A DNA stretch of 64,000 nt from Candidatus Cloacimonadales bacterium (GCA_963662655.2 CAXXTU010000002.1:1664001-1728000), one strand, 5' to 3'. Shown: positions 4,632 to 22,988, numbered from the stretch's first letter. Numbers and translations: made by a program. The notes: a model not told the origin generated them from the letters alone.

Positions 4632-5030
4632 TTAAAGGTGGTAGTTCTCTTTCAGATGCTCCTTGCAGCACTTCTTGTATGCCTCGAGTTCATCCTGAAC
4701 CAACTCCAGACCCAGAACGAGTACCGCGAAATCGTCGAGGAATCCGAGTCCCGGTACCGTGTCCGCAATTCCATCCCTCGGATCGAGAAGGTACAAGAGA
4801 GAGTATGTGAGACCCGCGACCTTCTCCCAGGTGATTTCCTTGAAGATGCCCTCATGGTAGTCGCGCACCATGGAAATCGCAATTTTTATGTCCGGTTTCA
4901 GTTCATGCAGCTCTTCCACTTCTCCAACTTCATCGATGATGCCTTCCATATTATCCAGCATCCTCGCCACATTTTCCTTGCTAACTCCTTGCGATTGCTC
5001 GAGTAACCAAGCTTGATCGATCTGCTCCAT
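4632..5030 (-). CDS. YkvA/DUF1232-family protein
   Basis: LYLLDPRDGIADTVPGLGFLDD signature; GGGAGG SD. Confidence 0.85.
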   Translation of the reverse strand: MEQIDQAWLLEQSQGVSKENVARMLDNMEGIIDEVGEVEELHELKPDIKIAISMVRDYHEGIFKEITWEKVAGLTYSLLYLLDPRDGIADTVPGLGFLDDFAVLVLGLELVQDELEAYKKCCKEHLKENYHL

Positions 5031-5183
5031 AATACCTCCCTTGATTTGTGCTTACATCATGAATATAAAAAAAAGCACGCGGCTGTCAATTAATTTTGCT
5101 GGTTTGGGCCGGTTTGTGCATTATAGAGCGCTTGGATAAACTGAGGTCAATAACACTGAAACGAATGTAGAATTGGAGCTGAA

Positions 5184-5825
5184 ATGACCAAGACTGGAAA
5201 TGAACGGAACCTGAAGGCTGGAATGGAATATCTTTTCGCCGGTTTACTTGCTGCAAAAGCTGAAGTTGATGCTCTCACTGACGCACCTGTGAACGTTGAT
5301 GTTGTTTGTTGTTCTGCCACCCACTGCAGCGGCAAAAAAACTGAGCGAAACCTCAGTTTATCCTTTGACATTAGAGATTTTGATGCTATATTGTATCCAG
5401 AGAGTTTGAATGCATCATTTGTTTACAGTGACGCAATCAAGCGCTTTAGCACCTTGATAAGCGTAGATAATAGAGTGAATGCAACCATCGGTTACGATGT
5501 GTACCCTTTATTTACACATCGTTCCGTGTTGACGATATCACCTGCTTCCATCATTGCTGAGAACGAGCCCGGAATATTCAACTCAAACTCATCCTGTATT
5601 AATGAAAATTCAATTGATTGGAAGCAAGTCATTTCCCGGAAGCAACACACCGGTTATACCCTTGATTCCGACCAGATTCTCATTCGGGTTGAAAACGGTA
5701 ATTCTTTTACAAACGTGGATCACGATAGCCGCACGCACTTCATGCTTAGGAAGGTTGAAATAGAAACGGTACGTGTGTCCGCTTCCGGGGATTTTTATCC
5801 CGATTGTTTGAGAAAGGTTGGATAG
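5184..5825 (+). CDS. Hypothetical ORFan (possibly frameshifted near its 3' end) within a structured AT-richer segment
   Basis: 213 codons, GGAG SD upstream of ATG, protein-like composition, no recognisable motif. Confidence 0.45.
   Translation: MTKTGNERNLKAGMEYLFAGLLAAKAEVDALTDAPVNVDVVCCSATHCSGKKTERNLSLSFDIRDFDAILYPESLNASFVYSDAIKRFSTLISVDNRVNATIGYDVYPLFTHRSVLTISPASIIAENEPGIFNSNSSCINENSIDWKQVISRKQHTGYTLDSDQILIRVENGNSFTNVDHDSRTHFMLRKVEIETVRVSASGDFYPDCLRKVG
5365..5392 (+). promoter_or_regulatory. Sigma70-type promoter inside the ORFan
   Basis: TTGACA (5365-5370), 16 nt spacer, extended -10 TGcTATATT (5384-5392). Confidence 0.5.
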
Positions 5826-6137
5826 CCATGATGAACTCGGCACGGAATCGAATGAGTCAATTGAAGTTGCAGAACGCTCGCTGCACCTTGCTCTGCATGG
5901 CCGTGCATCATTCTCCAGCGGAATTTTACCATGCAGTTGATGAAACATTAACTTGGAATTTTTCAAATCTGAAATACATTTTCACAAGCGCAGTGTCCCG
6001 GAGACATAATCTTAATTCTTTATATCAGAATGAACAACGACATCATGTTGTGAATGAGAATCTTTGCGAGAAAAATAACTCCTTACGTATGCCAAACGAA
6101 ACGCAATAAGATAACTGATTGATATAAAAGAACAAAA

Positions 6138-6166
6138 TTGACATGTCTCCGGGATTTTTCTATTGT
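6138..6166 (+). promoter_or_regulatory. Sigma70-type promoter for the lipoprotein gene (probably a leaderless transcript)
   Basis: TTGACA-17-TATTGT; ATG 7 nt downstream; no SD. Confidence 0.55.
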
Positions 6167-6173
6167 TGATCCC

Positions 6174-6863
6174 ATGAAGAAGCTCTATATACTCTTGATG
6201 ATCATCATTTTCGCGATGTTAATCGCAGGATGCTCCGAGGACAGCACGAATCCGTCTGGCCAGCAAAGTTTCCAGGATGAGATCATCCCGCTTGCGGTCG
6301 GCAATCAATGGATATACTTGTATACCGATGAAACGACCGGCTTGCAGGACACGCTTTGCAAAGGCGTTTCAGGATCCGAGATGTTTGAATGCGAAGACCA
6401 TGAACTGCGTGAAGTTTTCCACTGGAACTGGTACAATCTGGATGAAGGCCACTACGAAGACCACAAATCGCTTTGCTACAACACGGAAGAGGGATTTCAC
6501 AAGGCCGGCGGGATCAGTTCAAGCGACTCGCTGTTTGCGGACTATCTAACGGTTAAGTACCCTGTCTCCGAAGGTGACAGCTGGATTTACACGGATATCG
6601 AGTACGATCCCGAGAACAGTCAATGGGTTTACACGGACACCCTGGAAGCCTTCTGCACGGCTGTCGATACGATGATTACCACCCCGGCAGGTTTCTTCAC
6701 GTGCATCGAGGTTACCCTGTGCCGGCTGGGAACAGAACCGGGAGGGCTCTTTGTCCAGAGATTCTACTATTCCCCTAACATCGGGTACATCGGATTCATC
6801 TTGTACAACAACGGAGTCATTCGATCGAAGCGGCTGTTGATGGACTATTCGATCAATGAATAA
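6174..6863 (+). CDS. Lipoprotein (IIPLAVGNQWIY-type beta-rich domain)
   Basis: Signal MKKLYILLMIIIFAMLIAG-C lipobox; motifs PLAVGNQW, ITTPAGFF, YYSPNIG. Confidence 0.85.
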   Translation: MKKLYILLMIIIFAMLIAGCSEDSTNPSGQQSFQDEIIPLAVGNQWIYLYTDETTGLQDTLCKGVSGSEMFECEDHELREVFHWNWYNLDEGHYEDHKSLCYNTEEGFHKAGGISSSDSLFADYLTVKYPVSEGDSWIYTDIEYDPENSQWVYTDTLEAFCTAVDTMITTPAGFFTCIEVTLCRLGTEPGGLFVQRFYYSPNIGYIGFILYNNGVIRSKRLLMDYSINE

Positions 6864-7143
6864 TCCTCAAACTGTAAAGCATGGGATCGATTGTAAAAAA
6901 AGGTTACACTCACGATCCATGATATCTATAATAGATTTCATCCCTTGATTCCCCATACCTCGGACAATGTCATGAGCCTCTCGTCGCCAAAGAATTAATG
7001 CTTTCTTCATTATGTAAAAAAAAAATCTTGATTTGCAAATCGCGGTAAATATTTTGTGTTCGATGTGCTTGAATCAGCGTCCAGACGAACCCCGTTCCAA
7101 GTCCGCCTGAGTCAAGCTGATGTAAGACAGGAGATTGAGAAAT

Positions 7144-20115: not shown

Positions 20116-21507
20116 CTAAGCCTTGTGCAGCGCCATTCCTTCAAGGTCTTCTACAGCCTCGGCGACGGCCTCCGAGAGTGTCGGATGCGCGTATACGATT
20201 TCCGAAGCCTGCTCGATGGTGAGTCCGGCCTGAATCAGGATTCCGCCCTCCGCGATCAGCTCCGTCGCGCCCGGCCCGATGATGTGCATCCCCACGATCT
20301 TGTGGCTCTCAGCGTCAGCGATCGTTTTCACGAAGCCGAACGACTGCCCCATGCTGAGCGCTTTTCCGTTCGCACTGAAGGGAAATTTGCCCACGAGGAT
20401 TTCGCCGAAGGTCTCCTTCGCCTGCTCCTCCGTGAGGCCGGCGGATCCCAATTCGGGATTGGTGAACGTACAGCGCGGGATGTCCATGTACCGGATCGGG
20501 GCACGCTCGATGTCGCTTCCTTCAATCCGGTCGCGCATATCGTCAACCGCCCGTAACCCTTGCTTGCTGGCCACGTGCGCAAGCTGCATCTTGCCGGTCA
20601 CGTCGCCGATTGCATAGAGGTTTGGCAGATTCGCCCGCATGTTCTCGTCGATAACGATCGCGTTCTTATCCATCTCCGGCTCGCAATCGATCATCTCGAT
20701 GCCCAGACGCGGTTTTCTCCCGACGCTCACGAGCACCTTGTCGGCGGAAATCTCCTTATTGCCGGTGAGTGTGAGGATCGCCTTTCCATCCTCGATGCGG
20801 CAAGCTTCCACCGCCTTCTTGAGATGAACCTTGATACCCTCTTTCTTGAACGCCATGGCAAGGCGTTTGGAGACCTCTTCGTCTTCCGTGCTCACGAGGC
20901 GCGGCAGAAATTCCACAATCTCAACCTCGACGCCGAACTGGTGCATCACCGACGCGAATTCGCAGCCGATCACACCACCGCCCACGACGATCAACCGCGC
21001 GGGGAGCTCTCGCATGGAGAGGATATCGTTCGAGGAACATACCACCTCGCCATCGAACTTCATGAAGGGAAGCTCGACCGGGACGGATCCTGTCGCGAGA
21101 ATGACGTATTCCGCCATGTATTCCTGGTCCGCGGCGATCACGTAGCCTTCCCCGGTCTTGCGGACGGAGGTCACTTCGTGATTCACCACCGGAATCTTTT
21201 TCTTTTTGTATATGAATTCGATACCGCCGACCAATTGATCGACGATCTGCTGCTTTCTCTCGAAGACTCTATCGAATCGAACCGTCGCGTTCTCAGCGTA
21301 CAGTCCGAAATCATCGGCATTTTGCATCTCATGCAGCAACTCGGCCGGCTTGACCATCGCCTTGGTGGGGATACAACCCCAGTTCAGGCAAACGCCGCCC
21401 AGACGTTCCTTCTCGAAAAGGACAACGTCGATCCCGTATCGCTCCAGCTTGAGCGCGGCCACATATCCACCCGGTCCACCACCTATAACAGCTACCGTAT
21501 GTTTCAT
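20116..21507 (-). CDS. lpdA: Dihydrolipoyl dehydrogenase
   Basis: GGGPGGY, GGVCLNWGCIPTK, HPTLSE. Confidence 0.96.
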   Translation of the reverse strand: MKHTVAVIGGGPGGYVAALKLERYGIDVVLFEKERLGGVCLNWGCIPTKAMVKPAELLHEMQNADDFGLYAENATVRFDRVFERKQQIVDQLVGGIEFIYKKKKIPVVNHEVTSVRKTGEGYVIAADQEYMAEYVILATGSVPVELPFMKFDGEVVCSSNDILSMRELPARLIVVGGGVIGCEFASVMHQFGVEVEIVEFLPRLVSTEDEEVSKRLAMAFKKEGIKVHLKKAVEACRIEDGKAILTLTGNKEISADKVLVSVGRKPRLGIEMIDCEPEMDKNAIVIDENMRANLPNLYAIGDVTGKMQLAHVASKQGLRAVDDMRDRIEGSDIERAPIRYMDIPRCTFTNPELGSAGLTEEQAKETFGEILVGKFPFSANGKALSMGQSFGFVKTIADAESHKIVGMHIIGPGATELIAEGGILIQAGLTIEQASEIVYAHPTLSEAVAEAVEDLEGMALHKA

Positions 21508-22988
21508 TATCCTTCCTTCCTCCTCAAACGACTATTCAGAATTCCCAATCCCTCGCGATACTTCGCGATCACGCGCCGCGAAACGCTGATGCCCTTTTCC
21601 TTGAGGATGTTGGCGATATCCTGATCGCTGATCGGTCTTCGCTTATCCTCTTCCTCGATCATCTCGCGGATGTTCCGCTCGACAAGCTGACGCGAAACGG
21701 CATCGTAGTTCTTGTCCTTGCCGGCTGTCGATGTGAAGAAGTCTTTCAGGCACATCACGCCGAAAGGCGTATCGGCATATTTGGATCGCACAACGCGGGA
21801 AATGGTTGATTCGTTCACCTGAAGCTCCGCCGCGATGGTGGAGTAGGTTAGCGGTTCGAGGATTCCGGTCTCGTTATAGAAAAATTGCCGCTGATGCTGA
21901 ATGATGGAGCGCATCACCCTCTCCAGGGTGCGGTTGCGCATGTACATCGATTTGATGAGAAACTTGGCCGAATTGATCTTGCTGCGCACGTAGTTGAGCG
22001 CGTCCCGATCCTTCCCCATGTTCTTGATGATGTCGCGATAGCGACGGCTGATGATGATATTGGGCATGAAGGAATCGTTCACGATCAATTCGTATTCGTT
22101 ATCGATCTTCTTGATGATGACGTCCGGAACCATGTAGTTCGTTTCGTTGGTAACGAGTCGCAGGCCGGGTTTGGGGTCCAGCAGCGCGATTTCGTCTTTG
22201 ATCTCCAGCACGGAATCTACGGAAATCCTGTATTTCGTGGCGATATTCTGATATCGCCGGTGGATCAGATCACAGAAATCCTCGCGGATAACACCCGCGA
22301 GAACTTCGTTTTCCAGCTGCTCGGGCGTCAACTGCGCGAGCAGGCACTCGGGGATATCCCGAGCCGTAATGCCGGATGGAATCAGGTGCAAAACAATCTG
22401 ATGGATTTCTTTGGCCCGATCGTGGTCTATACCATATTCAATCGCCAGATCGTCGATATCGAAATCGTCGGGTAAAAAGCCATGCGCGTTGCTGCTGTCG
22501 ATCAGCTCGGTTGCAAACTCGAACTCGTCTTCCGTAAGGTTGTGGCGGTCGAGTTGATCGTAAAACTCCTGCTTCTTGTCTTCCTGGAGTCGAAGCGTGT
22601 TCTCGTGGTCGATCTCCTCGGCGGATTCCCAGGTCGAGGATCGCTCGTCGGAGTGGTAATCGTTCCAGGTATCGAGGATTTCGCTGAGCTCTTTCGCTTC
22701 GTCGATGGTCTCTTTCAGGTCTTCCGTATTTCTCTCGGGTTCAATATCTATATCAATTTCGACTTCAGGTGATTCATGTTCATGTTCGTCTTTCTTGTCT
22801 GTTTCCGGTTCGCGCGAGTCGTCTTCCTCTTGCAGTTCCAGCATCGGATTCGTAATCAGCTCGTGTTTCATGTGCATTTCGAGCTCGAGAATCGGTAGTG
22901 ACAGCAAATGAAGTGATTGAAGCATCTTGGGCCTGAGTTCAAGCCTCTGCTCTTGCTTCTGCGATAGGATTTGTTGTATTCTTGCCAT
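21507..22988 (-). CDS. rpoN: RNA polymerase sigma-54 factor
   Basis: Q-rich region I, ESTISR, RpoN box SRRVIAKYRE. Confidence 0.97.
   Translation of the reverse strand: MARIQQILSQKQEQRLELRPKMLQSLHLLSLPILELEMHMKHELITNPMLELQEEDDSREPETDKKDEHEHESPEVEIDIDIEPERNTEDLKETIDEAKELSEILDTWNDYHSDERSSTWESAEEIDHENTLRLQEDKKQEFYDQLDRHNLTEDEFEFATELIDSSNAHGFLPDDFDIDDLAIEYGIDHDRAKEIHQIVLHLIPSGITARDIPECLLAQLTPEQLENEVLAGVIREDFCDLIHRRYQNIATKYRISVDSVLEIKDEIALLDPKPGLRLVTNETNYMVPDVIIKKIDNEYELIVNDSFMPNIIISRRYRDIIKNMGKDRDALNYVRSKINSAKFLIKSMYMRNRTLERVMRSIIQHQRQFFYNETGILEPLTYSTIAAELQVNESTISRVVRSKYADTPFGVMCLKDFFTSTAGKDKNYDAVSRQLVERNIREMIEEEDKRRPISDQDIANILKEKGISVSRRVIAKYREGLGILNSRLRRKEG

Follow-up and report, generated by a model that had tools for sequence, protein, structure and literature searches.

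The window analysed here, a 64,000-nucleotide stretch of a Candidatus Cloacimonadales genome (G000), holds on its plus strand an element of about 0.9–1.0 kb that forms a single-copy locus between a divergent DUF1232 gene (4632..5030, minus strand, with its own conserved TTGACA promoter at 5089–5062) and a lipoprotein-like gene of no Pfam family (6174..6863, plus strand). Within the element lie folded domains, numbered D1 to D5 as in the preliminary description, and two open reading frames on the plus strand, ORF1 (5184..5825, 213 aa) and ORF2 (5828..6109, 93 aa). The locus had been picked out as AT-richer, and its GC content is indeed 0.40–0.44 compared with about 0.5–0.55 in the surroundings. 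Collecting homologues from related genomes yielded three syntenic congener copies, and the element, 889–1021 nt long, is thus syntenic in 4/4 genomes of one Cloacimonadales genus. Across the four copies, 370 of 1021 positions are invariant, and the fourfold sites of the neighbouring genes are near saturation (0.37–0.47 identity). The distance from D5 to the start of the lipoprotein-like gene varies among the genomes; a cis-acting leader for this gene was rejected because the spacing is not conserved. Further downstream, the 280-nt gap between the lipoprotein-like gene and dksA (6863–7143) is AT-rich and carries several promoter-like sites.

How far does the element extend beyond this genus? 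A blastn search of 61 genomes recovered it only in the source genome and its three congeners, with 0/57 genomes outside the genus and no phage records matched, and none was found in 228 other genomes of the phylum. Outside the genus, an ORF2 profile gave 0/199 and a covariance model of D5 gave 0/147. An ORF1 profile gave six weak matches in the 228 genomes (E 5e-4 to 4e-3, four of them with stops), none with a D5. Motif scans returned 6 viral, 0 viral, 47 metagenome and 1 non-genus genome loci, all of them motif-only; one of these scans missed G002, although G002 holds the motif. A viral peptide-pattern search gave 42 matches, 0 of which were confirmed. At the protein level, ORF2 had no relatives in the search, ORF1 matched its four copies plus two very long proteins, one of them an unrelated repeat protein, and the best Atlas match of ORF1 (0.81) led to no relatives by that route. 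Synteny is broken outside the genus, with different dksA neighbours in four genomes (the four of five with upstream sequence). Two metagenome contigs hold five tandem copies of a 16-nt motif in a low-complexity repeat that is unrelated to the element. The literature covered (mostly open papers, exclusive of the supplementary motif tables of the large ncRNA screens) held no description of the element, and our search on the phylum turned up no regulatory-RNA paper. The locus is a candidate, judged from its sequence, for an undescribed, genus-restricted regulatory RNA.

The preliminary description had proposed five long-range-closed domains tiling the element. Comparison of the four copies leaves three conserved closed domains, D1, the core of D3 and D5, with covariation in D1 and D5. 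D1 (5134..5363) is closed by an invariant stem of 13–14 bp, the repeat originally noted, of which all 14 pairs are present and 14, 13 and 14 of 14 are kept in the three homologues; it contains a covarying inner helix at about 5233–5254/5324–5349 and encloses the start of ORF1. The D3 core (5633..5791) has a conserved closing stem of 10–11 bp and an inner helix at 5651–5657/5725–5731. The two nested helices described there were borne out (11/11 and 6/6 pairs), and the 11-bp helix keeps 9 of 11 pairs in each homologue. Between the arms, the single-stranded motif at 5747–5757 is invariant.

The other closing stems fared less well. That of D2 can be drawn with 8/8 pairs but keeps none of the eight in any homologue, and the D2 inner hairpin (5494..5522), complete with 10/10 pairs, has a partly conserved core (8, 7 and 6 of 10). 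The outer closing of D3 is present in full (11/11, one G-U) but falls to 6, 5 and 1 of 11 in the homologues. The D4 closing is weaker than claimed, with 8 of 11 ungapped pairs (six contiguous), and is not kept (6, 5 and 6 of 11), alongside an inner helix with all eight of its pairs. The covariation expected among homologues was found in D1 and D5, whereas the closing stems of D2, outer D3 and D4 were lost.

D5 (5996..6154) is a rod with a closing stem, two covarying helices, a side hairpin and an apical stem (6060–6068/6102–6112) bearing a 33-nt loop, and we predict that it is the regulatory module of the element. Its length is constant at 158–159 nt and its folding z is −4.1 to −5.8 in 4/4 genomes. 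All 12 closing pairs are present, with 9 of 12 kept in each homologue, and the second helix proposed at 6016–6027/6120–6132 is weaker than stated in that it requires a bulge. Positions 9–33 of D5 show two-sided changes in 11 columns, and 17 columns are paired in at least three genomes, counted from single-sequence folds whose registers differ by a bulge. When strands of the variable arms of D5 and D1 were exchanged among genomes, the cognate strands were the most stable in 8/8 rows, although G002 and G003 are close. Because the comparison comprises four genomes, all of one genus, the independent changes are few and the covariation carries no R-scape-type statistics. An invariant block (5980..5995) precedes D5, and a T-rich tail (6155..6159) follows it as the likely 3' end, which is not a standard short-loop terminator and was not called by a terminator scan. 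A switch by arm swapping between D3 and D5 was rejected (alternative pairing probability at most 0.10).

Is the element then structured throughout? The folding-energy check suggested at the outset went against this, as the whole 997-nt fold has a z of −0.66 relative to dinucleotide shuffles, 5/20 of which fold as well. The hand-bounded domains gave z values of −1.9, −5.2, −1.3, −2.3 and −4.4, and the linkers between domains fold differently among the genomes. Long-loop inverted repeats of at least 14 bp occurred in 2/600 random 1027-nt genome windows, two such repeats of at least 12 bp in 0/600, and one of at least 12 bp in 0/300 shuffles. The 14-bp and 12-bp repeats of the element thus exceed chance expectation. 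As for the strand, in 4/4 genomes the minus-strand D5 duplex roughly matches or exceeds the plus-strand one in stability, and D5 alone leaves the strand unsettled; the plus strand claimed in the preliminary description is favoured by the inner arms of D1 and by a duplex with a target mRNA, the site-B duplex described below, which is more stable on the transcribed strands (4/4 genomes each). In the window, Rfam gave 0 matches at the gathering score and four at E 1.3–7.3, all to unrelated eukaryotic families. The central claim, an undescribed plus-strand structured RNA locus, hence stands, with no Rfam match and with covariation in D1 and D5.

The two promoter-like sites proposed earlier are not shared by the homologues. 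TTGACA-16-TATATT ahead of D2 is present but not conserved, and TTGCTG-17-CATTAT ahead of D1 fails at its −10 element, which the homologues do not keep. Sigma-54 promoters follow the spacing rule GG-N10-GC, and a site of this type (TGG-N10-GC-W, 5105..5120, plus strand; GG at 5106–5107 and GC at 5118–5119) is conserved in 4/4 genomes, with a predicted start at about 5131, about 3 nt 5' of D1. It remains a candidate because its first element departs from the TGGCA form, reading TGGGC or TGGGT, with non-canonical bases at the two positions that follow TGG; G000 holds 29 intergenic TGGCA-N7-TGC sites. The gene rpoN is present in 4/4 genomes, with 18–24 activator-domain matches per genome, a few of them weak. 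In the window, rpoN lies at 21507–22988 on the minus strand, about 15 kb from the element and near PTS and HPr-kinase-like genes. Directly 5' of D5, no conserved promoter was seen.

Could the exposed apical loop of D5 act on an mRNA? The loop contains CUCCUU, the complement of AAGGAG, the commonest Shine-Dalgarno (SD) hexamer of the genome. Its invariant segment at 6079..6093 (site A) is a perfect 15-nt complement of the SD region of one gene (−21..−7; G000:C2:3066143-3066157), 1.39 Mb from the element. A second segment, site B (6098..6117), is predicted to form 19–20 bp with codons 4–11 of the same gene, with one bulge and G-U pairs. The site-A duplex has an energy of −29.1 kcal/mol, compared with −22.7 for the next gene and −17.9 to −22.1 for the best duplexes of 12 shuffled loops; site B alone reaches −27.3, compared with −19.0 for the next gene and −16.6 to −24.4 for the best of 15 shuffles. 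Each site independently ranks this target first of 2959 crude gene calls, and the summed energy is −56.4 for the target vs −33.3 among these calls. Each of the four genomes holds exactly two copies of the site-A 15-mer, one in the element and one at the target ribosome-binding site (RBS), and G004 holds none. Site A is also accessible, with an unpaired probability of 0.66–0.79 and an opening cost of 0.7–1.5 kcal/mol.

Both sites are conserved on the element and target sides in 4/4 genomes. Since site A is invariant on both partners, it offers conservation and not covariation. Two shorter conserved helices could add to the contact: the segment at 5760–5768 in D3 can pair 9 bp with target codons 9–12, and 5988–5995, in the block preceding D5, can pair 6–8 bp with the target leader at about −75..−68. 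In site B and in 5760–5768, the departures from perfect complementarity are G-U compatible or bulge-shifting; the one exception is a terminal pair that G002 has lost. Around the target start, 61 nt in a row are invariant and 12/12 third positions are fixed, whereas such runs reach at most 11 in five control genes (the udk, ORF2 and lipoprotein rows, which had wrong orthologues, were left out). A genome-wide scan for exact complements, which misses G-U-rich partners, found ten chance 15-nt perfect complements in G000 for the 1021-nt query, and only that of site A lies wholly in invariant sequence. No conserved partner emerged from the same scan for D1 or for the D3 and linker motifs, and the only perfect trans match to the D3 motif in 4/4 genomes was the element itself. 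We consider it highly probable, on these sequence comparisons, that the element pairs with the target mRNA.

The target gene (G000:C2:3061733-3066136) encodes 1467 aa that begin like a signal peptide and include beta-helix, MAM, Ig-like and NIDO domains. It belongs to a cluster that encodes large exported proteins, two of them with FlgD/T9SS-like tails. Its N-terminus was found in 4/232 genomes of the phylum, the same four that hold the element. A crude codon-bias index ranks the gene 505 of 2959, which is unremarkable. Residues 1 to 70–80 are conserved, while the later domains vary from genome to genome, which suggests that domains have been exchanged; in G002 the gene appears frameshifted, perhaps through assembly errors. 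The target leader, roughly 270 nt long (G000:C2 about 3066170-3066306, minus), has a conserved GGGGAG followed by an upstream ORF with a TTG start, which has 44–45 codons and ends 32–33 nt before the target start in 3/4 genomes and has 31 codons in G001, its amino acids being unconserved. A conserved, single-stranded linker motif of the element (5447..5459, plus strand, core ACCTTGA) recurs as a same-sense 13-nt copy in this leader (G000:C2 about 3066300-3066313). A pattern made from both copies had no other match in G000, and they may share a protein or RNA partner.

Two neighbours in the cluster also carry complements of site A. The upstream paralogue-like gene (1376 aa, G000:C2:3066561-3070689, minus) has a near-copy of the complement before its SD, kept in 4/4 genomes (−16.6 to −18.5). 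The gene that follows the target encodes 215 aa of no Pfam family, with Atlas look-alikes in Cloacimonadota at 0.96 and a relative of 46% identity on a short contig. It keeps a 9-bp complement at its SD, with a site-B value of −7.4 in G002, and its start region is invariant over a 52-nt run (n = 3). This gene has its own terminator–promoter pair and a near-invariant leader and start of about 100 nt (G000:C2 about 3061560-3061690, minus). Because it is near-invariant and the element explains this only weakly, invariance alone does not prove pairing, and because its invariant start is explained only in part, the gene may have a second regulator.

The reading that we favour, with reasonable rather than strong confidence, is that the element is a single translated RNA of about 1 kb that acts in trans as a repressor and would block translation of the target mRNA. 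Transcription would start near 5131, possibly from the sigma-54 promoter, and end near 6158. The exposed loop of site A would dock first on the target SD, and site B would then capture codons 4–11. In 3/4 minimum-free-energy (MFE) folds, the target SD is predicted to pair with codons 4–11 in a start hairpin, and the two sites would invade both strands of this hairpin. Initiation is expected to be blocked because site A would mask the SD and the site-B contact begins within the five-codon window, in which binding represses according to PMC9486967. The long duplex might then be cut by RNase III, and Hfq would not be needed. RNase III is present in 4/4 genomes and Rho_N in 3/4, and Hfq (PF17209) was found in 0/4, with a positive control in 5/14. 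Both neighbours in the surface-protein cluster would be weaker targets of site A. As sites A and B occur in the same order on both RNAs, we infer that full winding of both helices is possibly limited by topology.

Pairing at the start hairpin could also have the opposite sign. Site B matches the strand of codons 4–11 that pairs with the SD, and by binding this coding strand the element might free the SD and activate or stabilize the mRNA. In G001, sequestration of the strand raises the openness of the SD from 0.30 to 0.67, but no rise was seen in the other genomes (0.28 to 0.15, 0.31 to 0.28 and 0.36 to 0.33). Furthermore, site A, the more exposed of the two, lies over the SD itself, and the site-B contact starts in the very window for which PMC9486967 describes repression. 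Activation is therefore an unlikely outcome of the pairing.

What, then, are the two open frames for? The possibility raised earlier that the element carries its own ORF was confirmed twice over, as two frames are open in 4/4 genomes. ORF1 has a conserved GGAG SD (5175–5178) and an ATG, keeps its frame, and gene calling picks it up in each of the four genomes. Both ORFs start behind SD-like sequences, and neither belongs to a Pfam family. The lengths in the four genomes are 213, 179, 190 and 166 codons for ORF1, with stop positions that vary by up to 47 codons, and 93, 86, 82 and 81 codons for ORF2. Frames of the length of ORF1 were open in 0/5000 shuffles for each genome, and those of the length of ORF2 in 9, 35, 73 and 63 of 5000. 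Among codons differing by one base, 59/204 (0.29) are synonymous in ORF1 and 34/87 (0.39, a mild excess) in ORF2, compared with a neutral expectation of 0.26; the synonymous share is 0.61–0.93 in three control genes (two sequences each). Fourfold-site identity is 0.74 in both ORFs, compared with 0.37–0.47 in six neighbours, in a measure that favours conserved blocks and from which the PP2C row was dropped for want of an orthologue in the loci. The predicted structure of the ORF1 protein has a pLDDT of 31.5 and no confident fold, and D1 and D3 are conserved at the nucleotide level within the frame. By these sequence measures, the frame and nucleotides of ORF1 are under selection and its amino acids hardly so (near-neutral), although its protein may have a sequence-tolerant function. 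The SecM arrest motif served for comparison with a look-alike in the element, and a SecM-like arrest peptide was rejected because the look-alike lies in a frame that is not open in all four genomes.

These frames may serve mainly as tracks for ribosomes, which would shield the RNA from Rho or from decay. ORF2 crosses site A, and its stop codon falls within site B or right at the end of that site; translation of ORF2 should for this reason compete with pairing. Passing ribosomes would open D5 and hide it, thereby gating the contact with the target. That such gating is the main purpose of the ORFs, with sequence-indifferent tracks and an antisense clamp controlled by translation, is a tentative proposal that we regard as possible but doubtful.

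Alternatively, ORF1 and ORF2 might be two ordinary, fast-evolving small-protein genes, with D5 processed or separately transcribed as a 160-nt sRNA and no translational gating. The gene calls for ORF1, the SD-like starts, the mild synonymous excess of ORF2 and the self-contained, constant-length fold of D5 would all suit this. However, the near-neutral amino acids of ORF1, its shifting stops, its lack of a confident fold or relatives, the nucleotide conservation of D1 and D3 inside it and the missing conserved promoter directly before D5 make such an arrangement improbable.

Since the complementarity is symmetric, the target leader or a fragment of the target mRNA might instead regulate the element, opening D5 and thereby affecting the stability of the element, ORF2 termination or read-through into the lipoprotein-like gene. 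The ORF2 stop lies in site B, the 3' arm of D5 is 6–34 nt before the lipoprotein start, and the target leader has conserved features of its own. On the other hand, the pairing covers the SD on the target but an exposed loop on the element, two further genes have site-A complements, and the spacing to the lipoprotein start is not conserved. Regulation in this reverse direction is thus quite improbable, and trans repression by the element remains the preferred reading.

The preliminary description had placed the element in the size class of OLE, ROOL, GOLLD and HEARO, and on this reading it would be an ornate non-coding RNA acting as an RNA-only scaffold, with the complementarity to the target incidental. 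Rfam 15 includes the OLE, ROOL, GOLLD and HEARO families, and no covariance model of any of them matched in the window. The size of the element (889–1021 nt), its long-range closed domains and its unexplained invariant loops, one with a 6-nt palindrome, do recall this class. However, covarying structure is confined to D1 and D5 among four sequences instead of extending over the whole length, the whole fold is no better than that of shuffles, the linkers fold variably, and there is no phage or tRNA context. Two frames, open in 4/4 genomes, cover the element, so that it is putatively translated rather than non-coding, and the sequence that it conserves most strongly is explained by pairing in trans with one mRNA, to which two sites point independently. 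In PMC12286853, OLE, ROOL and GOLLD are described as ornate throughout and self-assembling. The five-domain ornate reading is accordingly given up as very unlikely. Lastly, one transcription factor might bind the 15-mer as a DNA operator at each of the two loci, or the match might be due to chance, but despite the palindromic core of the 15-mer and the ten chance complements genome-wide this is similarly remote, since the G-U-containing second site suits RNA pairing better than DNA identity, the motif in the element falls within ORF2 and occupies the loop of a fold that covaries, and both sites are conserved in 4/4 genomes.

The closest functional parallel is RNAIII of Staphylococcus aureus, which PMC9266662 describes as a 514-nt RNA with one ORF and C-rich loops that act on target RBSs. 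On coa mRNA, RNAIII forms an SD duplex plus a coding-region contact, with cleavage by RNase III (PMC2837412). Likewise, the element would be a long RNA of several domains, with an ORF towards its 5' end and a C-rich loop facing a G-rich RBS; it has a second, coding-region site by predicted pairing, would be directed at a surface or secreted protein, and occurs in genomes with RNase III. It differs in being about twice as long, in having two ORFs of 81–213 codons instead of one 26-aa peptide, in the unconserved amino acids of ORF1, in having its pairing sites inside or at the end of ORF2, in its predicted pairing, which joins 15 perfect bp to a further stretch of about 20 bp on a single main target, and in being flanked by DUF1232 and lipoprotein-like genes. 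With no Rfam match and no delta-haemolysin ORF (no Pfam family in ORF1 or ORF2), the element would, by analogy, work like RNAIII without being a member of that family.

Dual-function sRNAs (AzuCR, SgrS/SgrT, SR1, VcdRP and Spot 42) similarly combine coding and pairing in one transcript. The ten tabulated in PMC12310071 are 109–514 nt long and encode peptides of 14–53 aa with their own functions, and translation of AzuCR competes with its base pairing (PMC8915982). The ORF and the pairing region of AzuCR overlap, as they do in the element, where translation could therefore compete with pairing. Unlike these sRNAs, whose small proteins are usually under 50 aa, the element has far longer ORFs (81–213 aa), of which ORF1 is seemingly indifferent to sequence, and its host lacks Hfq, placing it outside the class of Hfq-dependent trans sRNAs (0/4 genomes).

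Other RNAs resemble parts of the element. CyaR and RsaE are sRNAs with an exposed anti-SD loop, and the CUCCUU loop is alike, but the seed of the element sits in a 160-nt rod of a 1-kb RNA and makes 15 perfect pairs. In plasmid antisense systems of the CopA/CopT type, loop-initiated pairing invades the strands of a target hairpin; the element, in contrast, is encoded in trans, 1.39 Mb from its target, and is not an antisense copy of it, as sites A and B have the same order on both RNAs. A 6S RNA (RF00013) was rejected because the 6S gene of this genome lies elsewhere (62.8 bits) and none was matched at the element. CsrA is present in 4/4 genomes; a CsrB/RsmZ-type sponge was rejected because the element has only five invariant GGA, three in closing stems and one being the ORF1 SD.

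Here, sequence alone has led to the prediction of a regulatory RNA and its specific target, in a lineage that is uncultured and lacks Hfq. If the proposal is correct, the size of dual-function RNAs would be roughly doubled (at most 514 nt among the ten listed in PMC12310071), and selection would maintain 170–210 codons without a stop and yet disregard the protein sequence. Such stop-free, protein-indifferent frames would bear on the origin of "hypothetical" orphan ORFs and on the translational control of RNA regulators. If gating also holds, the clamp would be a ribosome-sensing trans regulator that shuts down a cluster of giant surface proteins. For the genus itself, the element points to post-transcriptional control of its large, variable surface proteins.
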